Of a stretch of DNA of 20,241 nucleotides, positions 3,185 to 19,456 are shown in pieces (within the stretch, counting starts at the first letter, position 1; every line of letters begins with the position of its first letter). The notes beneath the pieces were generated by a model. It had not been told where the DNA came from and did no database searches. It saw only the letters and a program-made list of their open reading frames with translations. The stretch comes from Deinococcales bacterium (GTDB lineage Bacteria; Deinococcota; Deinococci; Deinococcales; JAAFIG01): contig JAYWGM010000060.1 of the NCBI GenBank assembly GCA_043778225.1, positions 1-20,241 of the forward strand. Direction: 5' to 3'. The translations under genes were made by a program, and so were the position numbers.

Positions 3185-4162
3185 TTATGCACTTGAGCCG
3201 TCCAGTGCGGCATTTTTGACTGGCTCGTATTCATGAAGTTTTCTGACATCTATGGCAGCCCCGCCGTATTTATCTTGAATGTACATCTCCGAAAACTTGG
3301 CATTCCAAACAATTTCTTCGGCTTTGTACGAACCCCTTGCGTGGACTTTTTGAAACAAGACATCATCTAAGCCATGAATCACCACCAATAACTCGGCTTG
3401 GCTTTGGTCAAGGTCGGCTTCGTTCATGCCCCACAACGGACTTTCTGGCGTAATCGGATGCACCAGCGTCCATGCCATACTAAAAAAAGCCACTTTGGCA
3501 CGCTCGAGACGCAAATTATAAAAACGCCGCATTCTGCGCCCAGCTACCATTTCAAACCTTGAAAAATTGACTTGGGCTTCGATGTCGATAATTTCGTTAC
3601 GATAACCGTTGGTAATCCGAAACATCAGCCCTAAACCGTCTTGAAATGGCGACACCAGCGCGTTTTTGCTCCACAAAATTCTCGAGACTGGCTTAGAAAA
3701 CCTCGAGAACATCACGCCAGTAATCAAAGCCGCAATCAGTAGACCCAAGAAAGCCTCGATGCTCGAGACCACATGAGCCGCTACGCTGTTTGGCGAGATA
3801 TGCCCATAGCCAATCGTGGACAGCGTTTCGACACTAAAAAAGAAGCCACGCCAAAAGGTGTCTTTGACTTCGTTGGGTGTACCGGCATAGAGCGCATCTG
3901 GACCGCATAGCAGATAAATAAAGGCAAAAACCAGATTGATTAAAATAAAGACAACCGTGACGAGCGTAAAAAACATTGTCCACGACATCGAAACCAGTGC
4001 ATAAAATGGGCTGAGGCTCGAGAACCACCCCAAGCCCACCCGACGGGTATTAAAACTGCCATCTTTGTTGAGAAAGCGGGTGGACTGTTCGGCTTGAACC
4101 CGACCGATGCCAAGGTCATCTGGAATTGGTAGCTGGATTGGCGCTGATTCGGTTGGCGACAT
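3185..4162 (-). CDS. Inward-rectifier potassium channel (KirBac family)
   Basis: FFFSVETLSTIGYG pore/selectivity filter, two TM helices and a cytoplasmic Kir domain (LMFR, WTLVHPITPESPL). Start taken at the second Met (MSPTES) because TATAAT sits 7 nt upstream. Confidence 0.93.
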   Translation of the reverse strand: MSPTESAPIQLPIPDDLGIGRVQAEQSTRFLNKDGSFNTRRVGLGWFSSLSPFYALVSMSWTMFFTLVTVVFILINLVFAFIYLLCGPDALYAGTPNEVKDTFWRGFFFSVETLSTIGYGHISPNSVAAHVVSSIEAFLGLLIAALITGVMFSRFSKPVSRILWSKNALVSPFQDGLGLMFRITNGYRNEIIDIEAQVNFSRFEMVAGRRMRRFYNLRLERAKVAFFSMAWTLVHPITPESPLWGMNEADLDQSQAELLVVIHGLDDVLFQKVHARGSYKAEEIVWNAKFSEMYIQDKYGGAAIDVRKLHEYEPVKNAALDGSSA

Positions 4163-4205
4163 AGGCAGCATTATAAAGAGTAAAAGTCATTTTTTTCTAA
4201 AAAAC

Positions 4206-6992: not shown

Positions 6993-7988
6993 TCATGGGC
7001 GCACGGTGATGTCTTGAATATGCTGCCAGTCCGACCAGCCTTTGATGGGTAAAGTGACTTGGACTTGCCACGTTACTTTGTTGTCGGTGGCGCAAAAAGT
7101 CGTGGCTGCACCTTCGGGAATTGGTAGCTCGAGCGCAAACTCGAGTTTCTCGCCGCTTCGCAAGAAGCGCTTTTCAGAGACCAAAACTGGGTGCTGAAAG
7201 ATAGGGACAACATGAGTGCTGCGATTTGTGCCACTGCCAGTCGAATAGGTTTCGCTCTGCACCAGTTTGACTTCGATTTTCTCGAGTTCGAGGTCGGCTT
7301 TAACAATGGTTTCAAAGCGAACCTGAATACTTTGACTTGGCTGGATTTCTAAAGGTTCAATCTCGAGCTTGACCGCCCCGAGTTTGGCTTGGGCAAGGCT
7401 GTTGCGTAAAAGTGTATAGCCGATAAAAACAATCACACCGCCAAAAATCAAACCGACTGGAATAGCAATAAAAATCGGCACTTGCGACAAAATAAAAAAT
7501 AATCCAATCAAAAAAACAAAACAAAAACCAAGACCAACCTGCATTCCAATTTTAGAGCCAACCCCAACGATTTGCGCTCGAACCGTGGGCGCAAGATATG
7601 CTGGTCCAAAGTCCACACTTGCCATGCTTGGCAATGCGCCAAAAATAAAATCGGTTTCGGCTTTGGTTTTACCAAACATTCCGCCAGACTCGGCACGAAC
7701 ATACCAATCCAGATTAGTGTTTGTGCCTCGGTAAGTAAACGGACCATCGGGCATTTCAAAGTTAAATGGCACTTCGGTGATTCCAGCATTCCAGTTTTCG
7801 GCAATTGTGGTTTCGGCTCGAGAGCCATGGTCGCCACTGCCACGCCCATGCGCCCGCCACTCACGAATCAACTGGATTTTGCCGCGTCCACCGTCTGGGT
7901 CGTGAATGCTGACCACACCAAAAACCATATCGCCAGCCAAGTAGACCCCATCAGGGCGGTCAAGTCGAATCTCGAGCTTAAAACTCAT
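6993..7988 (-). CDS. Hypothetical membrane protein with two arrestin/SpoOM-like beta-sandwich segments flanking two TM helices
   Basis: The N-terminal 'LEIRLDRPDGVYLAGDMVFG...PFTYRG...DWYVRA' pattern recurs in the C-terminal half; a central hydrophobic hairpin separates them. Shares an ATGA overlap with the upstream gene. Confidence 0.6.
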   Translation of the reverse strand: MSFKLEIRLDRPDGVYLAGDMVFGVVSIHDPDGGRGKIQLIREWRAHGRGSGDHGSRAETTIAENWNAGITEVPFNFEMPDGPFTYRGTNTNLDWYVRAESGGMFGKTKAETDFIFGALPSMASVDFGPAYLAPTVRAQIVGVGSKIGMQVGLGFCFVFLIGLFFILSQVPIFIAIPVGLIFGGVIVFIGYTLLRNSLAQAKLGAVKLEIEPLEIQPSQSIQVRFETIVKADLELEKIEVKLVQSETYSTGSGTNRSTHVVPIFQHPVLVSEKRFLRSGEKLEFALELPIPEGAATTFCATDNKVTWQVQVTLPIKGWSDWQHIQDITVRP

Positions 7989-10300: not shown

Positions 10301-11068
10301 ATGATGCAACTCGAAACAGCCGTTCAAATAGCTGGGCATAGTCTGGTGGTATTGCAAAACACGACTCGAGACTCGAGTTTTCAGGAAAAAGCTGGAATCT
10401 GGTGGTATCAAACTCAAACCAACCTGAACGCCATGTTGACCAACACCGATTCTATGCCACTCGAAGTCAGCGCGGCGGCTCGAGCGTGGGGTCTGAAAAA
10501 ACAGTTGGTGATTCATCAGTTCTTAACTCCAGATTCGGATCAAATTGGCTTAATAGCCCGTTTTGCTGCGGCTGGTTTTGTTTTGACCAATCGTCATTAC
10601 CTCATGAACCAAGACTTAAAACTACAACTCGAGTTGCCTGTACCTTGGAGGGTTTTTTGCGCCGAAAATCAAAAACAAATTAAGCAAATCTCGAGCGCCG
10701 CCAAAGAAATTTTGTTGAATCTGGCTCAGTTGCCACCGTCGCCTTTGGGGGTGCGCTTGTACGCGGCTCAAGACTCGAGTCAAATTGTTGCTTGGGCGCG
10801 AGTTGCCCAATTACAGCCCGATACTGCTTGGTTGGACGATTTGTTTACGCGGGTGGCTTGGCGTAAACGCGGTGTGATGGCAAGTATTTTACAACGCATT
10901 GACCAAGATGCAATTACTTTTGGGGCGCACCAAATGCTGTTGTTTTCGGGGCAGCATAATCTCGAGTATCATCTTGGGCATGGGTATGAAAAAGTGGCAA
11001 TAAAATTGCGATTTGCTGCCCCACCAACTTGGTTTGAACGAATCAAAAATAAGTTCAAAGCAAGTTAA
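10301..11068 (+). CDS. GNAT family N-acetyltransferase
   Basis: C-terminal AWLDDLFTRVAWRKRGVMASIL (motif A) and LGHGYE; GGAG RBS upstream. Confidence 0.75.
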   Translation: MMQLETAVQIAGHSLVVLQNTTRDSSFQEKAGIWWYQTQTNLNAMLTNTDSMPLEVSAAARAWGLKKQLVIHQFLTPDSDQIGLIARFAAAGFVLTNRHYLMNQDLKLQLELPVPWRVFCAENQKQIKQISSAAKEILLNLAQLPPSPLGVRLYAAQDSSQIVAWARVAQLQPDTAWLDDLFTRVAWRKRGVMASILQRIDQDAITFGAHQMLLFSGQHNLEYHLGHGYEKVAIKLRFAAPPTWFERIKNKFKAS

Positions 11069-11484
11069 GCCTCGAGTTGTGCCTTAGCAGCTGTTTTCAT
11101 CGTGTCCGCTACCAGTGTGTACACCACACCCCAAGCCTCACGGACTTCGGTGGTGAATGCCAGTCCTAAACCCTTTTCTAAAGTCCAGATAAGCGCAGTC
11201 CCAACAGTTTCATAGTGTGCTTCGGTCACACCGTACCCCGCGTGACGTTGCCCAAGTAATTTTAGAGCAGGTAAGACCACATCGGGTTTGGTTAAATTGG
11301 TCACGGCAACACCCAGCATGGTCATGAGTTTCTTGCCTTGTTCGGTCATGTCGCCATGAAACATGGCTTTGAGACTCGGGTCAAGCTCGAATAAGCGTGT
11401 GTAAAATAAGTCGGCTGCCACAACCGCAATTGGTTCTACCTGAGCAAACGACGTTTGTACCAGTTCAATTTGATGTGCATTCAT
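11065..11484 (-). CDS. Single-domain globin (flavohaemoglobin/Vgb-like), 139 aa
   Basis: LFYTRLFELDP (B10 Tyr), EQGKKL (E7 Gln) and LGQRHAGYGV (proximal His). Start MNAHQ at 11484 with an AGAGGT RBS. Confidence 0.93.
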   Translation of the reverse strand: MNAHQIELVQTSFAQVEPIAVVAADLFYTRLFELDPSLKAMFHGDMTEQGKKLMTMLGVAVTNLTKPDVVLPALKLLGQRHAGYGVTEAHYETVGTALIWTLEKGLGLAFTTEVREAWGVVYTLVADTMKTAAKAQLEA

Positions 11485-11522
11485 AAAATTACCTCTTAAA
11501 ATCTCGAGCCGTGAATCGTGGG

Positions 11523-12887
11523 TTATGGTTGAGCCACAACTAAACTCGGTTGGTGGTTTTTCTCGTGACTCGAGCCTCGCCAAACGCGCCAAACGATACT
11601 GGGTACGAATAAAGAACTTGGTGGTTTGACCATGTTGCCCACGCTATGAAATGCTACGGTCAAGATTGGGTCATGTGCTGCTACCGTCAGTAATTTTGCA
11701 ATGTAGGCATTGATCAAATTAACTTCTGGTCCTCGTTTACCAATGGTTTCGGCAAAAGCAAAATCTGCTCCTGCTGCCAGCATCCAAGCGGTATCTACAA
11801 CCCCAGCCGCTTGCTTAAAAAATCGTTTGCCAATGCCTTTGATTCCAAGGTTCAGAGCGGTACTCAGGGCTTGGGCTTCGAGACTGGCAACACTCATGCC
11901 TTGTCCAAAAATTGGATTAAAACTACACATCGCGTCGCCCAATACCAAGAAACCTTCTGGAAAGGATTTTAATTTTTCGTAATGCCGTCGTAAACTTGCA
12001 GGGAATTTGTACGGCACAATCTCCGAGAGTGGCTCGGCGTTTTTAAGTAAATTGTACAATTCAGGGGTTGGTAAACTGCGAGTAAACTCGAGAAAACCAG
12101 CTTGGTCAGTTGGCGGATGATCGCCGTGCATTCCAATCAGGGTCACTGCCCATTGGTCATTTTCCTGAGCTAAAATTACTGCACCACGCTTTTGATTTGG
12201 GGCTTTTGGTGCAATAACCATCAGGGCTTTACCGTTCAAATCAGAGCTTGAACGCCGAAAAGTACGGGTTGAATACGCCATATTGACTTTGACTTCGCTT
12301 ACTTGAGGCGCAACAAAACCCATCCGCTCGAGCCAAACTGGGCTTTGCGAACCACGACCACTGGCATCCACCACCAAATCCGCTTTGAATTGCTGTTTGA
12401 TGCTGTCCACTTCGTACTGCACACCAATAACTTGATTGGCTTTGATTAATAAACCCTTCACAGCCACATCAGTCAAAGCCACCACATTCTTTAAGCTCAG
12501 AACACGATTACGAACCACCGCCTCGAGATTCGGACGACTGATTGCCACACCATGCAAATCTGAAGTTGCTGCAGCTAAAAAAGCCCCATTTTGAAACCAA
12601 GCACCGTCCTTGGTGACATCCAACAAAAGCGCCCCAGCTTTGACCAATTCGGACTGCAAATCTGGGAATAACCTCAGCAAAACACGGTAGCCAGCACTGA
12701 GTAACCCATGCGGATGCTGACCTTGAGGCACGCCCTTACGCGGCAACGTATTTTCTGAGAAAACATCACGCTCGAGTAGTGTGACCCGCTCGAAACGCTC
12801 CGAAAGCACCCGAGCCGCCAACAAACCGCTCATGCTTGCCCCAATCACAATCGCGTGCTTAGCGATTTGGATATTATTTTGATTCAT
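11523..12887 (-). CDS. FAD-dependent monooxygenase/oxidoreductase
   Basis: AIVIGASMSGL, RKGVPQGQH.H, LVVDASGRGS and LGDAMCSFNPIFGQGMS. Start MNQNN at 12887 with an AGAGGTGG RBS. Confidence 0.9.
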   Translation of the reverse strand: MNQNNIQIAKHAIVIGASMSGLLAARVLSERFERVTLLERDVFSENTLPRKGVPQGQHPHGLLSAGYRVLLRLFPDLQSELVKAGALLLDVTKDGAWFQNGAFLAAATSDLHGVAISRPNLEAVVRNRVLSLKNVVALTDVAVKGLLIKANQVIGVQYEVDSIKQQFKADLVVDASGRGSQSPVWLERMGFVAPQVSEVKVNMAYSTRTFRRSSSDLNGKALMVIAPKAPNQKRGAVILAQENDQWAVTLIGMHGDHPPTDQAGFLEFTRSLPTPELYNLLKNAEPLSEIVPYKFPASLRRHYEKLKSFPEGFLVLGDAMCSFNPIFGQGMSVASLEAQALSTALNLGIKGIGKRFFKQAAGVVDTAWMLAAGADFAFAETIGKRGPEVNLINAYIAKLLTVAAHDPILTVAFHSVGNMVKPPSSLFVPSIVWRVWRGSSHEKNHQPSLVVAQP

Positions 12888-12961
12888 AAAACCACCTCTT
12901 GTATCTCGAGGACGAAAAAACATGGAACTCGAAACACCTATTCATTTCTTTGACTTAACTA

Positions 12962-13168
12962 TTACGTTCCCGACTTCATAAAAACCAAAAAAGGTAAGCC
13001 AAGTAACACCACCAGTAGCAACAACAAACCAATCATTAGTACGCCAATCGGCACAATTTGCTCGAGATTCAACTGATACCCATAGCGGACAATCAGTCCA
13101 AGCACGATAAACACAACAACAAGATAAAGAAGGTACAGCACTGCAAAAATTATTATTTTAAGTCCCAT
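12962..13168 (-). CDS. Small two-TM membrane protein (68 aa)
   Basis: Two long hydrophobic segments, AAGGGA upstream of the ATG, and co-orientation with its neighbours. Confidence 0.6.
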   Translation of the reverse strand: MGLKIIIFAVLYLLYLVVVFIVLGLIVRYGYQLNLEQIVPIGVLMIGLLLLLVVLLGLPFLVFMKSGT

Positions 13169-13187
13169 GTCATCCCTTCTAATTCAC

Positions 13188-13310
13188 TTAAAAACTACCC
13201 ATGCCAGCCACTAAAACCGCGTAATTCCCTTGGGTCTCGAGGCTTGGCTTGACGTATGGTTTTTTGACGACGTTCACTTCGGTGCTTGGTGCTTCTTTAA
13301 CTTGATTCAT
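13188..13310 (-). CDS. 40-aa peptide with RiPP-leader-like KKPYxxPxL motif
   Basis: Manual translation: MNQVKEAPSTEVNVVKKPYVKPSLETQGNYAVLVAGMGSF*. Strong RBS AGAGGAG 4 nt before the ATG. Below the ORF-track cut-off. Confidence 0.75.
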   Translation of the reverse strand: MNQVKEAPSTEVNVVKKPYVKPSLETQGNYAVLVAGMGSF

Positions 13311-13373
13311 AATGCTCCTCTTGAAACAACCCCAGAACTTGATGGCTCGAGGGGGAAAATTGCGAATACTCAG

Positions 13374-15851
13374 TTATTTTTTGAGTAAGACACTGATTGA
13401 ATTTGAACTGCTGTTACCTGTGATAAAATCAAGTTTGCCATCGGCGTTAACATCGCCTGTGCTGACAACCCGAGCATTTTCACTGGGGCTATAATCGGTC
13501 TTGGCAGCAAAACTACCCGTACCCGTACCGAGCAGTACACTGGCGCTACCAGTAACCGAGCTAAAGTTGGCAGTAATTACATCGAGTTTGTTATCGCCGT
13601 TGAAATCGCCAATTTTAATGTCTATTGGGTTTGTACCAGCTATAAAATCGGTTTTTGGATTGAGACTGCCATAACCCGTGCCTAACAGTAAACTGATGGT
13701 ACTTGAACCTTGATTGACCACGGCTAAATCGAGTTTGCCATCGGTGTTAAAATCTCCAGCCGCTAAGCCTTTGGGACTCGAGCCAACAGGGAAATCGGTT
13801 TTTGTATCGAACGTTCCAATGCCAGTACCAAGCAATAAACTGATGGTATCTGCACTGCTATTGGCTACGGCAACATCGAGTTTTCCATCGCCGTTAAAAT
13901 CGCCCAGTGTGACATCTCGAGGGCTTGTACCAACCAGATAATCGGTTTTGGCTGTAAATACACCAAAGGCATTGCCGAGCAGCAGACTGATGGTATTTGC
14001 ACTATTATTAACGACCACCAAGTCAAGCGCACCATCGCCGTTCAAATCGCCATTGCTGATGGCGACAGCCCCAGCACCTACCGCATAATCGGTTTTGTTT
14101 GGAAATAAACCTAAACCATTTCCGAGCAGCAGACTGATGGTATTTGGATTCTGATTGACCACGGCAATATCAAGGTTGCCGTCGGCATTAAAATCCCCTG
14201 TGGTTAATGCACCCGGGTTTGCCCCTGTACTCGAGTTGAGGGGCGCTGAAAATCCTCCCCCGCCAGTGTTGAGTAAGGCATTGACTTGATTGCCTCCAGG
14301 ATTTGTGACCACCACATCCAAATGACCATCGCTGTTAAAATCGCCTGTGGTTAAACCAATTGGCGTACCAACCGTGGCTGTACTGACTTTAGAATTAAAA
14401 CCAGTCACAGCTTCTGGGCTACTGGCGATCCGAAAGCGGTAGACAATTGGTTTTAGGGCAGCATTATCCAAAGTTCGAGTTAAAAATTGAGTCAGGCTGA
14501 CTTCAACTTCTTCACCGCGCCTAAAATTGGTCGTAGGCGTATACACAAGACCATCACCAGGAAACGGGGTACTGTAATCGCCGTTGCTACTCGAGCGCCG
14601 CCCTGTTTCAGCACTGTTAATCACAAAGTTAGAACTTGTCGCATCAAACATTAGATCGCAAGTATTGGCTTGTACCACGGTATTGGCAGCTACAAACATA
14701 CTGTTTGGAATCGGTAAAACACTGGTCACACCGGGTTGATTACTAAAAAAATCTTGAGCCAATGTCGGTGTGACGGTGGCAGTTTCGACTCGGCAGAGCA
14801 GATCGCGTTGCACACCTGTACCAGTTGGGTTTGGGTAGCCAAAAATTCCACTGCTCGGCAAGGTACGGATATACCGTTTTCCACCAATTCCGGGCAATAC
14901 ATTTAAGTTCAGCACTTGCTCGAGTGAAGTTTGAGCGGCAATACTTTGTTCTTCTTGACTTTGCGAAGTGGCAGATGCAATGTCGTCGGCAACCACGAAC
15001 ACAAAACTAAAGGTAAATGGATTTTGACTGCGAATTGGTTTACGTGGCAACTTAAAAGCAAAGGTGACACGTCCCTTGAAGCAACTCGAGTTGTTGGTCA
15101 CAAAGGTGTAACCGTTTGGTGGGCTGGTCAGGGTACTCGAGCAATTGGCACTGGTTGGTGTCATACCAATGGTTCGTGCAGTGCCAGAAGTTGGTACACT
15201 CCGAGCCGTGTACCCATACTCGAGGACTTGCAGTGCTGGGTATGTGGTATTCAAAGCTACTTGCACCACATCGGTTTCGGCTTCGCTGTAAAGCTGCATA
15301 TCCGCCGCTTCTGGTTCGATTTCAACACCGTTACTGATACTCGAGCGCATACCATGCGTGGGTTTGATGGCACGGTAGGTCAATTCGCCCGTGGGTACAG
15401 TATCGGTGGCTGGGATAACCACATCTGCGCCATCTTTTAAGCTCGAGAACATTGTGCCAAGTTGAGTATTTAAGCTGGTAGCCACAAAGTTGAGGTTCTT
15501 AAAGCTGGTGGCACTAAAATTTGCAATATCAAAAGTGGCTCGGACATAGCGGGTTTTTGTGCCAAAGGTTTCGTTGGCATCTATAAACCCAACACTGTTG
15601 CGTTTAATGGCAATTTGCGAGGTGGTGTTGCCATTGGCAGTTAAGCTCTGGGTTTGCAACTTGCTCGAGACAAACGGCTTAAAGTTGCTGCGGCTGGTTG
15701 GATTTAATTCATCGCTAAAATCCAGTGTCACCTCGAGTAAACCAAGGGTTTTAACAGGGCTTGGAATGGAAGGTGGTTTTTCTATTCTGGTACTACCACA
15801 ACCAATCGTGGCAACAAGTAGTAAGGTAAATCCGAGGAACTGACGCATCAT
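13374..15851 (-). CDS. Lipoprotein with unknown N-terminal domain, Ig-like (Big_5-like) domain and seven FG-GAP/VCBS repeats
   Basis: Lipobox TIGC and AAGGAG RBS; seven GD(F/L/V)NxD(G/N)xLD motifs at ~49-aa period. Confidence 0.9.
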   Translation of the reverse strand: MMRQFLGFTLLLVATIGCGSTRIEKPPSIPSPVKTLGLLEVTLDFSDELNPTSRSNFKPFVSSKLQTQSLTANGNTTSQIAIKRNSVGFIDANETFGTKTRYVRATFDIANFSATSFKNLNFVATSLNTQLGTMFSSLKDGADVVIPATDTVPTGELTYRAIKPTHGMRSSISNGVEIEPEAADMQLYSEAETDVVQVALNTTYPALQVLEYGYTARSVPTSGTARTIGMTPTSANCSSTLTSPPNGYTFVTNNSSCFKGRVTFAFKLPRKPIRSQNPFTFSFVFVVADDIASATSQSQEEQSIAAQTSLEQVLNLNVLPGIGGKRYIRTLPSSGIFGYPNPTGTGVQRDLLCRVETATVTPTLAQDFFSNQPGVTSVLPIPNSMFVAANTVVQANTCDLMFDATSSNFVINSAETGRRSSSNGDYSTPFPGDGLVYTPTTNFRRGEEVEVSLTQFLTRTLDNAALKPIVYRFRIASSPEAVTGFNSKVSTATVGTPIGLTTGDFNSDGHLDVVVTNPGGNQVNALLNTGGGGFSAPLNSSTGANPGALTTGDFNADGNLDIAVVNQNPNTISLLLGNGLGLFPNKTDYAVGAGAVAISNGDLNGDGALDLVVVNNSANTISLLLGNAFGVFTAKTDYLVGTSPRDVTLGDFNGDGKLDVAVANSSADTISLLLGTGIGTFDTKTDFPVGSSPKGLAAGDFNTDGKLDLAVVNQGSSTISLLLGTGYGSLNPKTDFIAGTNPIDIKIGDFNGDNKLDVITANFSSVTGSASVLLGTGTGSFAAKTDYSPSENARVVSTGDVNADGKLDFITGNSSSNSISVLLKK
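13377..14400 (-). repeat. Intragenic ~147-bp tandem repeats encoding FG-GAP blades
   Basis: aatcggtt blocks at 13644, 13791, 13938 and 14085 (147-bp period); identical 25-mers at 13975-13999 and 14122-14146. Confidence 0.85.
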
Positions 15852-15878
15852 TTGTTCTCCTTTGAACGAACTGTTCGT

Positions 15879-15914
15879 AGCTTAGAATTGCTGCCGTAGC
15901 CTGAGCGTAGCCTG
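15879..15914 (-). promoter_or_regulatory. SARP/AfsR-type activator site and -10 element of the lipoprotein operon
   Basis: Minus strand reads CAGGCTACG-CT-CAGGCTACG-(10 nt)-TAAGCT: a perfect 9-mer direct repeat at 11-bp period. Confidence 0.7.
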
Positions 15915-15976
15915 TGTCGTTTGATTCGTCAGGCTCGAGAAAAGCAGCAAAACACAAACTGTGTCATGATGGTCTG

Positions 15977-18900
15977 GTGAATTCCGTTGCGCCCACTGAA
16001 ACGCAAACAGAATTAGAATTTCGCTTCTTTGGTGAACCCGAATTTTTTCTAGACAAACAAGAATTGCACCTGCCGATTCGTAAACTGATGGCTTTAATGG
16101 CGTATTTAGCTGTGGAAGGTTCTGGCTCGAGGTCAAAATTAGCCGGTTTACTCTGGTCGGAACTGGACGAAACCAGTGCCAGACGAAATTTACGCCAGCG
16201 CTTGTACCGCCTCAGCCCACCTGAATTAACGGCGTGCTTGCAAATCGAGAGCGATAAAATTTCTTTGGGTGTCGTCTCGAGCGATGTCCAAGATTTTACC
16301 AAAGCCATACAGCACAACAATTTTTTGACAGCCGTCAGACTCTACAAAGGTGTCTTTTTAGAAGGGCTTGAACTCGAGGATGCCAGTGCTTTTCACGATT
16401 GGTTGGATACCAAGCGCAACACTTTCGCACGGCAGTACCAACACGCCCTCGCCGAACTAGCCAACCAACTCGAGGCAGACGGACATTTTCTCGAGGCACT
16501 GCAACAGCATTTGTTGCTGATTGCCATCAACCCACTGCTTGAACTGCACCAGCGCCAGATTATGCGGCTGCATTTGCAACTGCGCCAACCCGCCGAAGGG
16601 TTGGCGGTCTTTGAGCGCTTTAGGGATTTACTGGGACTAGAACTTGGGCTAGAACCCACCCCAGAAACGCTGCTGCTTGCCAGCCAAATGCGCCAACAAG
16701 AAACGCAACTCGAGTCGGTGGTGGTGCAAAAAAGCATTCGTGGCTTTGTCTCGCGCACCCCAATGATTGGACGGGCTGGCATTTGGCAGCAATTAGAAAA
16801 GGCTTGGCAAGCTGGGCAAATGGTTTTTATCGGCGGCGAACCTGGCATGGGCAAAAGCCGTTTACTCGAGGAATTTGCGACCACCAGACCAACCCTAACT
16901 ACACTAGGGCGAATCGGCGACAGCAGCCTACCGTTTGCCACCCAAACCCGAGCGATTCGCGGTTTACTCGAATTAAACCCGCAACTAAGCCCGCCGGCTT
17001 GGATTCGTCAAGAACTCTCGAGGCTGATACCAGCCCTGCACGATACCGCACCTGAAGACCGTCCAGAATCGCGTTTACGATTATTTGATGCCTTTACCGA
17101 ACTGCTCTGGATGACCACCCAGAGTATTGACACGCATTTAATTGACGACCTCCAATTTTTTGATTCCGATAGTTTTGAAATGCTGCTGCACAGTTTCTCG
17201 AGGTTTCTCGAGCGCCCCAACCAAAAACGCCAAATTCTGGCTTTTCGGCATGGCGAATTAAGCCCAGCCATGCAGCACAGCCTTGACCAGATGATTCAAA
17301 GCGGCACCGCCACACTGTTGCAACTCGAGCCGCTCGATAACTTAGCTGTTCAGCACTTGGTGCAGCACTTATTCGGGGCAAATGTTGATTTATCTAATAA
17401 ATTGTACCGTGCCACGGGCGGCAATCCGTTCTTTGCGCTCGAGACCCTAAAAACACTGGTTGAATCGGATGCGCTGCAACAAAATACAGTCGGAAGGTGG
17501 GATGCCACCAATGCCGACCTCCCGATGCCGCACAGTGTCATGGCAGTGGTACGCGAACGGGTGGCGCGGCTTGGTTCAGAAGCCACACGCTTGCTCGAGA
17601 CCGCCAGTTTAGCGGGCGATACCTTTGCGCTCGAGGATATTCAAAACGCCACCACCCTGACCGAATTTCAAGCGCTAGAAGCCTTTGAAAAAGCCTTGGC
17701 ATTGCAACTGCTCGAGCAGCAAGCAGGTGGCTACCGATTTAGTCATGATTTGGTGCGAGAATCCATTGCTTCTGGACTTGGCACAGAACGACGGCGCTTA
17801 CTGCATAAAAAACTCGCGGTGAATCTCGAGCAGCGCGGTGGGGCAGCTACGCGCATCGCATGGCATCTCGAGCAGTCTGGGCAAGCTGTTCAAGCGGTGG
17901 GTTGGCGTATCAAAGCCGCCGAAGAAGCGGGGCGAGTCTACGCGCATCAAGAAGCGATCAATCATTACAAGATGGCTTTACAAGATGGAGCAGATGCTGC
18001 CCAAGCCTTTAAGATTCATCTTGTCTGCCTTGATTTATTTGGTTATTTGCACAATGCACAAGGTGAAATGGCAACCCTAAGCAACTTAGAAACGCTGGCT
18101 CTGGCTGACCCGCAACTGAGCGCAATCGTTGCCACAAAACAAGCCGATGTTGCTTATAAAACGGGTCGTTATCTGGATTGCCTCAAAGCTGGGCAGCGCG
18201 TGTTGGACACCAAAAATGTTAGTCTTAGCCTACAACTCGAAGGGCAGTACCACCGTGGTATGGCACTCGAGAAACTTGGACGAAGCCAAGAAGCCCAAGT
18301 TGTCTATCTGTTAGCCTTTGAACAATTAGTGTCTATGCCCGCAAAAAAGCAAATTGGTCTTTGTGTGCAACTCTGTTATTTATCGGTACAAAACAGCGAT
18401 TTTGTGGCAGCCGCCAACTTCCTAAAAAGTGCTTTTGAACTTTGCGAAACCCAGAACAGTCTACGGGGACGATCCCTTTGCTACAATGCCAGTGCGCGGC
18501 TGGCATTATCTCAAGGAAAGCGCCCAGAAGCCATCAAGGAACTTGAACTCGCCCTCAAAGACGCTCGAGCGATTTTTGATAGACGCTTACAGGAGAGTTT
18601 TTTATTCAACTGTATTCGTATTCATGTCGAAGCAGGCGAACTTGACATTGCCCAAAATAAACTCGAGGAAGTGATTAATTTACTACCAGAACCCTACGAA
18701 CCTCTGGCTGAAAGTAATTTACTGACCCGACTCGCCGAAATTCAAATGCTCAGAGGCAACCTTGCTGCCAGCCTCGAGTCTTATCGTAAAGCAGTACAAA
18801 TTGGAGCTTTGCTTGGTCAGTCACAAAATCATGTTTGGCAAGTGGTTGGTTTGTCGCGTTTACATTCACAAATTGGCGATTTGGCTGGCGCTCGCAGCGT

Positions 18901-19456
18901 TATGGAACAATTGCTTAAAGCCGCCAAAGAAGGTACTTACAACGACCATATTCTGGTACAAGCCCAACTGGCTGGCTGCGAATACGCCGAAGGTCAACTC
19001 GAGACGGCTAGGCAGCGCCTGACCCAGATTTTACAAACCAAACAAACCGATTACCGCGAAAACCGACACCATGCCATGTATCAACTTGGGATGGTCGAAT
19101 TGGCACGTCATCAGCCACAAAAAGCCTTAGCTGCCATTGCCCAAATAGACCATTCCAGCACAATCTTTGCTTGTGCCATGAGTATTCGCTTAAAGGCAAA
19201 CAGCGCCCTTGGCAACAAATTAGACAGCCAAGCCGCCGAAGCACTCTTAGCCAACACCAGCCTACCACCCTTGCAAAAACTCGAGTTATATGTTTCGTTG
19301 GCTAGGACATTAGCTAAAACCAGTGATTCCAAAGAAGCGGCTGTGTTTCAAGAACTTGCGAGTACGCAACGACTCGAGTTAGCAAGCAGTTTAATTTCGT
19401 ATCCAGATTTGCAAAGAACTTTCCTCGAGAAGCACAGTAACCCGCAACTCGAGTGA
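15977..19456 (+). CDS. AfsR-like SARP-family transcriptional regulator (wHTH + BTAD + AAA/STAND ATPase + TPR)
   Basis: KLMALMAYLAV..SRSKLAGLLW..ARRNLRQ wHTH; BTAD (LYKGVFLEGL..WL..R, LGLEPTPET); Walker A GEPGMGKS; IDDLQ; TGGNPFF; TPR-like tail. The ORF is open from GTG 15914, but GTG 15977 is preferred (TGt-CATGAT 6 nt upstream). The start is uncertain. Confidence 0.9.
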   Translation: MNSVAPTETQTELEFRFFGEPEFFLDKQELHLPIRKLMALMAYLAVEGSGSRSKLAGLLWSELDETSARRNLRQRLYRLSPPELTACLQIESDKISLGVVSSDVQDFTKAIQHNNFLTAVRLYKGVFLEGLELEDASAFHDWLDTKRNTFARQYQHALAELANQLEADGHFLEALQQHLLLIAINPLLELHQRQIMRLHLQLRQPAEGLAVFERFRDLLGLELGLEPTPETLLLASQMRQQETQLESVVVQKSIRGFVSRTPMIGRAGIWQQLEKAWQAGQMVFIGGEPGMGKSRLLEEFATTRPTLTTLGRIGDSSLPFATQTRAIRGLLELNPQLSPPAWIRQELSRLIPALHDTAPEDRPESRLRLFDAFTELLWMTTQSIDTHLIDDLQFFDSDSFEMLLHSFSRFLERPNQKRQILAFRHGELSPAMQHSLDQMIQSGTATLLQLEPLDNLAVQHLVQHLFGANVDLSNKLYRATGGNPFFALETLKTLVESDALQQNTVGRWDATNADLPMPHSVMAVVRERVARLGSEATRLLETASLAGDTFALEDIQNATTLTEFQALEAFEKALALQLLEQQAGGYRFSHDLVRESIASGLGTERRRLLHKKLAVNLEQRGGAATRIAWHLEQSGQAVQAVGWRIKAAEEAGRVYAHQEAINHYKMALQDGADAAQAFKIHLVCLDLFGYLHNAQGEMATLSNLETLALADPQLSAIVATKQADVAYKTGRYLDCLKAGQRVLDTKNVSLSLQLEGQYHRGMALEKLGRSQEAQVVYLLAFEQLVSMPAKKQIGLCVQLCYLSVQNSDFVAAANFLKSAFELCETQNSLRGRSLCYNASARLALSQGKRPEAIKELELALKDARAIFDRRLQESFLFNCIRIHVEAGELDIAQNKLEEVINLLPEPYEPLAESNLLTRLAEIQMLRGNLAASLESYRKAVQIGALLGQSQNHVWQVVGLSRLHSQIGDLAGARSVMEQLLKAAKEGTYNDHILVQAQLAGCEYAEGQLETARQRLTQILQTKQTDYRENRHHAMYQLGMVELARHQPQKALAAIAQIDHSSTIFACAMSIRLKANSALGNKLDSQAAEALLANTSLPPLQKLELYVSLARTLAKTSDSKEAAVFQELASTQRLELASSLISYPDLQRTFLEKHSNPQLE

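Follow-up and report, generated by a model that had tools for sequence, protein, structure and literature searches.

We analyzed a 20,241-nucleotide stretch of DNA from a Deinococcales bacterium (GenBank assembly GCA_043778225.1, contig JAYWGM010000060.1; hereafter the window), focusing on an open reading frame (ORF) of 40 codons on its minus strand. Comparison with related genomes indicates that this ORF encodes a real, conserved, leader-bearing peptide that is not a lasso peptide, and that its probable maturation enzymes are encoded elsewhere in the genome. With a probability that we would set a little above even, we favor the explanation that it is a short precursor-type peptide that would dock on a stand-alone RiPP recognition element (RRE; RiPP, a peptide made on ribosomes and modified after translation) encoded on another contig (C64), would be phosphorylated on Ser39, and would possibly be trimmed or decorated by a fusion enzyme encoded on a third (C44). 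The gene and its parts are as follows.

13188..13310, minus strand: peptide gene, 40 codons plus a TAA stop; short form of a Y-type lasso-leader peptide family
13315..13320, minus strand: Shine-Dalgarno sequence GAGGAG, 4 bases 5′ of the ATG (ATG at 13310-13308)
13227..13256, minus strand: leader motif Tyr19-Val-Lys-Pro22-Ser-Leu24-Glu-Thr-Gln-Gly28, putative RRE docking site
13236..13241, minus strand: CTCGAG, the codons of the invariant Leu24-Glu25
13191..13211, minus strand: end of the peptide, Val34 (Thr-equivalent) followed by Ala-Gly-Met-Gly-Ser39-Phe40
13194-13196, minus strand: codon of Ser39, candidate phosphorylation site

Minus-strand translation of 13188–13310 runs from ATG to TAA and yields 40 residues, with Tyr19-x-x-Pro22-x-Leu24-x3-Gly28 in the leader and AGMGSF, free of Asp and Glu, after Val34. 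The ORF of an FG-GAP lipoprotein ends at 13374, 63 bases from the peptide ATG. A sequence-only reading of this DNA, made without database searches, had picked out the ORF, its strong ribosome-binding site, the 63-bp gap and the YVKPSL-ETQ-G spacing, and all of these proved exact when the minus strand was read again. It had also called the peptide unannotated. This stood insofar as the peptide has no name; the identical 40-residue protein is, however, already present, unnamed, in a collection of 5.8 billion proteins (P0181, on 4 contigs).

The bare YxxPxL motif alone is weak evidence. The expression [YFW]..P.L...G, at most 40 residues from the ORF end, matched 102 times in a six-frame search of the 4.03-Mb genome, mostly in frames that are implausible. 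The peptide ORF is set apart by its match to a family profile, by a frame, start, stop and ribosome-binding site that are kept in orthologues, and by a proportion of non-synonymous differences (pN) far below that of synonymous differences (pS).

A first family profile, built from 15 peptides, was run over 92,973 small open frames of the window's genome and had 14 matches down to E 0.003, with the window peptide, itself among the rows from which the profile was built, at E 3.5e-13; further profile searches retrieved it at E 1.3e-13 (16-row profile) and E 5.4e-15. A profile was needed to find the family because a single-sequence search of the same genome gave only the window peptide itself and one weak paralogue. 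The sequence-only reading had proposed looking for small YxxPxL ORFs beside loci of SARP-type regulators and lipoproteins; the profile search of small open frames turned up a family of 14 members in the genome. The family pattern begins with one or two basic residues and Tyr-x-x-Pro-x-Leu-Glu-x-His/Gln; three positions later comes an aromatic residue, then Leu, Thr/Val, Gly/Ala, and Ser plus a hydrophobic residue. Pro22, Leu24 and Glu25 are invariant and Tyr19 nearly so in the 16-row peptide alignment (A1), and all 14 peptides of the genome have Tyr in the leader motif. The Leu-Glu of the leader is encoded as CTCGAG in 24 of the 24 family peptides examined, in comparison with TTGGAA in the W-type lasso precursor of the same genome (on contig C92; see below). 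The invariance of the Glu that follows the RRE-binding Leu may therefore owe something to a drive acting on the CTCGAG palindrome.

With the 16-row profile, 15 of the 18 genomes sampled from the same Deinococcales family had matches, 1–14 copies each, and none of the 42 genomes from four sister families of the order did. In an evenly drawn sample of the phylum, 7 of 251 genomes had a match. The family thus appears to be mostly confined, in the genomes sampled, to one Deinococcales family. In the 5.8-billion-protein collection, 43 proteins matched at E ≤ 0.001, none of them with a functional name or a Pfam domain.

Most members differ from the window peptide in their length and in their surroundings. 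Thirteen of the 14 peptides in the genome are long and have an acidic tail. Only the window peptide is a short form, by which we mean one with at most 9 residues after motif position 16, the position of Val34. Twelve of the 13 long forms end at most 8 bases from the next start codon: 11 precede a gene encoding a signal peptide and a lipobox Cys, and one (on C49) precedes a second peptide gene that abuts a lipoprotein gene. The peptide gene on C50 lies 37 bases from its lipoprotein gene. At the C49 locus (L053:2868-3157), two family peptide genes lie end to start, followed by a single lipoprotein gene. Common to the paired lipoproteins is an N-terminal domain, about 300 residues long, that we name lipoN. 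The window peptide also has such a lipoprotein as its neighbor; the main features of its locus are listed here.

13374..15851, minus strand: lipoprotein of 825 residues with a signal peptide, lipobox Cys18 and C-terminal FG-GAP repeats (FG-GAP_3, E 9.9e-57)
~14892-15797, minus strand: lipoN domain of this lipoprotein, about residues 19–320 (lipoN profile E 1.4e-85; alignments A2, A3 and A5)
15914..19456, plus strand: divergent SARP-type regulator of BTAD-AAA-TPR architecture (BTAD 8.8e-12, AAA_16 2.6e-11, TPR families)
15876..15912, minus strand: repeats GGCTACG-n4-GGCTACG then GCTACG in the 62-base intergenic region between the SARP and lipoprotein genes, candidate SARP operator

We compared long and short forms in a sample of 30 loci, made up of the best peptide matches. 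All 23 long forms of the sample lie directly before a lipoN gene, and 19 of the 23 have Thr at motif position 16. Seven short forms are known, 6 in the sample and 1 outside it, and they recur in 6 genomes. All 7 have Val or Ile at position 16; 5 of them sit after a lipoN lipoprotein gene and none before one. The order in the window, with the peptide 63 bases after its lipoN lipoprotein, is thus the reverse of the family rule, and a profile search found no other family peptide within the window. The 5 short forms of the AGxGS type (one each in the window, in the same-genus genome G001 and in G011, and two in G014) all end in Gly-Ser-Phe or Gly-Ser-Ile.

We next consider conservation. When 60 relatives were searched with the single sequence, the same genus yielded an orthologue of 72% identity, and the taxonomic family gave weaker matches. 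Comparison with the orthologue of G001 gave a pN of 0.12 and a pS of 0.67 for the last 27 codons, while the first 12 are far less constrained (pN 0.28, pS 0.41). The G001 orthologue has a 12-codon in-frame indel, the same stop and a kept AGGAG. The stop position is common to the orthologues in G001, G011 and G014, the latter two representing a second genus, whose short forms end in Gly-Ser-Ile at the same alignment position and have as neighbors a SARP homologue and an FG-GAP lipoprotein that is orthologous (57% identity in the lipoN part). Because short forms are kept in the second genus at the same type of locus, the truncation is old and maintained. Lack of conservation of the ORF or motif in related loci was what the sequence-only reading had named as telling against the gene; conservation was instead found in two genera. 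These comparisons indicate that the ORF is a genuine gene under purifying selection.

Could the window peptide nevertheless be a functionless, decaying remnant of a long form, cut by a stop codon? It is the only short member in its genome and is without features that most members keep. We disfavor this explanation, however, and regard it as hardly credible, since the stop position is kept in two genera, the ribosome-binding site is kept, pN is far below pS, short forms occur in 6 genomes, and neither a frameshift nor loss of the start codon was seen in the orthologues.

The leader motif raises the question of a lasso peptide. A lasso core usually has at least about 14 residues, with an Asp or Glu at position 7–9 to close the ring. 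The window peptide has the YxxPxL leader of lasso precursors, but it has neither the penultimate Thr, whose position is taken by Val34, nor the core length and acidic residue, nor an associated cyclase; only 5–6 residues, none acidic, follow the putative cut site. The translation thereby bears out two earlier remarks, that Val occupies the lasso Thr(-2) position and that the implied core is tiny and has no Asp or Glu. With no acceptor Asp or Glu, and at most 6 residues after the Thr-equivalent, the peptide cannot form a lasso, which directly establishes the non-lasso reading proposed before. As no ring can form, the product would stay linear.

The genome does contain a complete lasso cluster, on contig C92, which comprises B2, B1, a cyclase, an adjacent precursor, an RRE-TylF methyltransferase, a glycosyltransferase-like protein and an HprK-like kinase. 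Two Asn_synthase matches in the genome exceed the Pfam cut-off, a cyclase-type protein of 640 residues on C92 and another protein on C88 (28.4 bits). On C92, the start of the lasso B2 gene is overlapped by the stop of an IMP dehydrogenase gene that is split by an intein (L010:3939-6629; Hint, Intein_splicing). In its leader motif the C92 precursor has Trp; it ends in Ser-Phe and was not retrieved by the 15-row family profile, which had been built without it.

It is very improbable, in our judgment, that the window peptide is an extra substrate of the C92 cluster. The two share their leader logic and a Ser-Phe end, and C92 has its own HprK-like kinase, which is related to the kinase of C64; unlike the window peptide, however, the cluster has its own adjacent precursor of the Trp type and a cyclase. 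The window peptide has no ring-closing Asp or Glu, its core is far too short, and family peptides track the C64 and C44 enzymes across genomes (see below). In addition, the leader has Trp there but Tyr in all 14 family peptides. According to a paper on the linear polyphosphorylated peptides (LPPs; lppA-K-B-S-D-N) found in Bacillota (Popov et al., Nat Commun 2026, PMC13381572), Tyr versus Trp in the leader picks the RRE and so insulates the LPP pathway from the lasso pathway in one cell. The difference between the 14 peptides and the C92 precursor matches this discrimination rule.

We then looked for candidate maturation enzymes. None of the 20 ORFs scanned in the window has a PqqD, Transglut_core3 or Asn_synthase domain, and the whole-genome matches to these three domains are all on contigs other than that of the window. 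The earlier statement that there are no visible maturases hence holds for the window; it does not hold for the genome, in which the proposed search for PqqD/RRE proteins found a stand-alone RRE on C64. This is an 83-residue PqqD protein (60.7 bits), and its stop overlaps the start of a gene for a 297-residue P-loop kinase-like protein. Among proteins of solved structure, it is closest to the lasso RREs TbiB1 (1.7e-7) and TfuB1 (5.3e-6). The P-loop protein weakly matches HprK-related NCBIfam models and resembles the HprK-like kinase of the C92 lasso cluster (BLASTP 4e-10). The RRE precedes the kinase in 7 of the 7 relatives' loci inspected. The second candidate, on C44, is a 437-residue fusion of NTP_transf_5 (5e-28) and a B2-type Transglut_core3 domain. 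Its neighbors are genes for DegT, RmlA-like, dehydratase, RmlD and flippase proteins, a sugar-nucleotide/polysaccharide locus.

Of the 18 same-family relatives, 12 have the kinase and 13 the fusion; in 5 genomes the two are adjacent. Fourteen of the 15 peptide-bearing genomes have the kinase, the fusion or both, the exception being G007, which has a single peptide. In the 3 peptide-less genomes (87–91% complete), neither enzyme was found. These distributions suggest that the peptides and the kinase and fusion have been gained and lost together, a pattern that, among related genomes, does not amount to a statistical test. Since lipoN genes outnumber peptides (22 vs 14 in the window's genome, 15 vs 1 in G007), the peptides follow the enzymes more than they follow the lipoproteins. 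The option of processing in trans, raised by the sequence-only reading, gains support from the C64 RRE–kinase pair, the C44 fusion and their joint absence with the peptides from 3 relatives.

The lipoproteins are themselves a large family. The lipoN profile matched 843 clusters at E ≤ 0.001 among 1.84 billion representatives, and in the best 150 of these 843 at most about 70 residues precede the domain. The domains C-terminal to it are very varied (FG-GAP, beta-helix, RCC1, Ig-like, endonuclease/phosphatase and others). No Pfam family was found on the lipoN domain in the 19 members scanned. An AlphaFold2 model of lipoN is a beta-sandwich (mean pLDDT 78.2, pTM 0.78), for which Foldseek against the Protein Data Bank gave nothing at E ≤ 0.001 (best E 0.026, with a TM score below 0.2). 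The best Z from VIA-align, run over 48,161 chains, was 6.8, to a white spot syndrome virus (WSSV) envelope protein, a value common for unmatched models, with carbohydrate-binding modules at Z 3–4. Scores in the protein atlas were at most 0.87, cellulose-binding clusters being weak leads. No fold could be assigned to lipoN from Foldseek, VIA-align or the protein atlas.

The close pairing suggests another explanation, in which the exported peptide would bind lipoN directly as a ligand, cofactor or added strand and the enzymes would be secondary. It would account for the tightness of the pairing, with 12 of 13 long forms at most 8 bases from the following start and 23 of 23 before lipoN, and for the conservation of lipoN at the N-terminus of proteins whose C-terminal domains vary greatly. 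Nevertheless, we consider it improbable. The peptide has no signal sequence, no exporter was found in the stretches read (the genome was not searched for one), lipoN genes outnumber peptides, and co-duplication of neighboring genes explains the pairing without contact. On C104 (L047, C104:298-8964), three tandem lipoN genes have one family peptide, which lies before the middle one; not every lipoN gene therefore has its own peptide. A co-fold of lipoN residues 19–320 (72 rows) with the window peptide (16 rows), run without controls, gave scores of 0.00 and 0.00, which is evidence neither way.

The regulator is likewise a recurrent part of these loci. SARP-type paralogues of BTAD-AAA-TPR architecture flank 6 peptide–lipoprotein loci of the window's genome, and the triad of SARP, FG-GAP lipoprotein and short peptide is kept in the second genus, where the SARP orthologue adjoins the lipoprotein in G011. 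Together with the synteny and the position of all sampled long forms before lipoN, this supports a link of the peptide to the lipoprotein and the regulator, of which it had been suggested, from the window alone, that it may be a partner. The GGCTACG repeats, a candidate SARP operator from their sequence and position, have an 11-base period and are followed by CAGCAAT.CTAA; the 4-Mb genome has only 3 such tandems. At the G001 locus the same element (L019:1039-1075) stands directly before the peptide gene and not before the lipoprotein gene. A scan for promoter- and terminator-like sites found none in the gap that separates the lipoprotein and peptide genes of the window, overall counts of such sites being no higher than in shuffles. 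Co-transcription of the two genes is therefore likely. The RNA fold of the region is ordinary (z 0.27). For 12900-14100, a look through sequencing runs turned up no RNA run, only DNA runs; 3 of them contain the stretch in full or in part, and 2 of these 3 may come from the source sample.

These features bear on the possibility that the short form is an unmodified small regulator, either a decoy for the RRE or, by analogy with afsS, a ligand or target of the SARP, that would adjust how the long forms or its own lipoprotein are expressed or matured. In its favor, the window peptide has no Thr, which 19 of 23 long forms have, and its acidic tail is wholly absent; 5 of 7 short forms follow a lipoprotein gene and none precedes a lipoN gene; and the candidate operator directly precedes the peptide gene in G001, with a SARP beside the locus in two genera. 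By contrast, the C-terminal Gly-Ser-Phe/Ile belongs to the most constrained part of the peptide, and a decoy acting purely through its leader would have no need of it; nor are SARP TPR domains known to bind such peptides. According to Duan et al. 2023 (PMC10368454), Ile can replace the penultimate Thr of a phosphorylated lasso precursor, and Ile or Val at position -2 recurs in such systems; Val34 is therefore compatible with processing. Taken together, we regard an unmodified regulator as unlikely, though by no means negligible and the foremost of the alternatives.

In the explanation that we favor, processing by enzymes in trans, the Tyr19-x-x-Pro-x-Leu leader would dock on the stand-alone lasso-type RRE of C64, and the HprK-like kinase translationally coupled to this RRE would phosphorylate Ser39, the single conserved Ser. 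The C44 fusion of NTP transferase and B2 domain may then cut off the leader near Val34-Ala35 and decorate the phosphate. The analysis establishes the gene, its family, its synteny and its co-occurrence with the enzymes, while docking, phosphorylation, cleavage, export and contact with the lipoprotein are inferred. Expression of the peptide would be tied to the upstream FG-GAP lipoprotein gene and the divergent SARP, and for this reason the product most likely acts at the cell envelope with the lipoprotein family.

Several observations weigh against this explanation. The enzymes are encoded on other contigs, so the link to them rests on co-occurrence among related, non-independent genomes. In four genomes from another family of the order (G020, G028, G036 and G060), the kinase and the fusion are present but no peptide is detectable by the profile; the two genes are adjacent in 3 of these genomes, 3 have 2–8 lipoN genes, and their precursors may be too diverged for the family profile. 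G007 has 15 lipoN genes, 1 peptide and neither enzyme, so that the lipoproteins do not need peptides. TIGR02228, the model for a SipW-like LppS peptidase, matched nothing at E ≤ 0.01 in this genome of 89% completeness. No exporter, such as the MsbA-like LppD of the LPP systems, adjoins the peptide, the RRE–kinase pair or the fusion in the stretches read, with the limit on that search given above. NCBIfam and Pfam scans of the window peptide gave no match, including to the NCBIfam lasso-leader models at E ≤ 1; the C50 paralogue matches one of these models with 20.1 bits (cut-off 19). Finally, Ser lies at +5 from the Thr-equivalent in the short form, compared with +3 in the long forms and in LPPs, so that this form may serve poorly, or not at all, as a substrate.

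A broader proposal, which we consider quite unlikely as a whole, is that SARP, lipoN lipoprotein and peptide form a self-contained envelope module, in which a linear phosphorylated peptide, perhaps also decorated with a sugar or nucleotide, would partner or signal its own lipoprotein. If this were so, the short form of the window would be a minimal version, with a leader and a Ser-bearing core of 5–6 residues, and the LPP/paeninodin class would gain a cellular role, that of dressing or reporting on diversified surface lipoproteins. Independently of this proposal, the presence of about 14 precursors per genome wired to surface lipoproteins, many of them near a SARP, points to the cell envelope as the place to seek function. 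The short form narrows the conserved need to the leader and a few residues with one Ser, and it would be a convenient minimal substrate for kinase and peptidase tests.

Two further genes lie directly downstream of the peptide gene.

12962..13168, minus strand: hydrophobic protein of 68 residues, starting 19 bases after the peptide stop; no family found
11523..12923, minus strand: FAD-dependent oxidoreductase of 466 residues, start probably at the ATG at 12887; GG-reductase/halogenase-like

The oxidoreductase had only weak matches to FAD families, all below cut-offs. We ruled out the 68-residue membrane protein and the oxidoreductase as maturases, because both are absent from the syntenic locus of G001, in which a globin gene comes straight after the peptide gene. 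By this comparison, the block containing them (11523-13168) appears to be an insertion here or a deletion in G001. In the window, a single-domain globin is encoded at 11065-11592 (Pfam Globin 1.5e-16; likely start Met37) and is 92% identical to the G001 orthologue; it closes the operon and is followed by a terminator-like hairpin at 11075-11055. Elsewhere in the window, a 331-residue protein at 6993-7988 weakly matches Arrestin_N (9.3e-6) and Arrestin_C (1.2e-4), and 3185-4171 encodes a homologue of inward-rectifier-type potassium channels (IRK_C 6.9e-20, Ion_trans_2 7e-12).

Three known systems invite comparison. In the AfsR/afsS system of Streptomyces, a large SARP has a small adjacent target gene. 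The window locus likewise has a BTAD-AAA-TPR regulator beside a small ORF, and direct repeats with an 11-base period in the promoter region; the likeness meant here is one of gene layout, and the small ORF differs in having an RRE-type leader and a lipoprotein partner. As for this partner, a full-text literature search found no paper on peptide–lipoprotein pairing, although the supplements of the LPP paper could hold examples from outside Bacillota.

The phosphorylated lasso peptides are closer. Those with Ile or Val at position -2, such as the BsfA/BsfK/BsfB1/BsfB2 system of Bradymonas sediminis (PMC10368454), have a YxxPxL leader, a kinase acting on a core Ser and Ile or Val in place of Thr, and B1 assists the kinase and B2; the paeninodin type is to be placed beside them. 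Unlike the window peptide, which has no acceptor residue and whose apparent enzyme set has no cyclase, these peptides are cyclized by a C protein.

The closest parallel is the LPP class, first described in 2026 and from Bacillota only, its biological role being stated by the authors as unknown (PMC13381572). There, LPP precursors follow the consensus YxxPxVLxHQxIxFETxxS, with the spacing Y1-P4-[VL]6-H/Q9-hydrophobic12-T16-S19; cleavage of the leader comes after Thr, and polyphosphorylation affects the Ser at +3. Discrete lasso RREs are given as recognizing [Y/W]xxPx[L/V/I/F/A]. The long forms of the present family match the LPP spacing, with Y1, P4, L6, H/Q9, an aromatic residue at 12, T16 and S19. 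The systems further resemble each other in the Tyr-type YxxPx[VL] leader, in a discrete RRE with an HprK-like kinase, in the lack of a cyclase, which would leave the product linear, in a Trp-type lasso cluster in the same genome, and in a link to polysaccharide loci. An NTP transferase may be a further common feature, LppN there and the NTP_transf_5 part of the C44 protein here. The systems differ in that no SipW-like LppS was found, its place being taken by a B2 cysteine-peptidase domain fused to an NTP transferase, and in that the precursors, from the phylum Deinococcota, are scattered, 14 per genome, away from the enzyme genes and beside lipoproteins and often a SARP. The window peptide itself departs furthest, having Val34 in place of the Thr of the LPP cleavage site, Ser at +5 rather than +3, and an RRE–kinase pair in trans, whereas its long-form paralogues mostly have the LPP arrangement of Thr and Ser(+3). 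These comparisons point to an LPP-like logic in Deinococcota that would use a different leader peptidase, a B2 domain fused to a nucleotidyltransferase.

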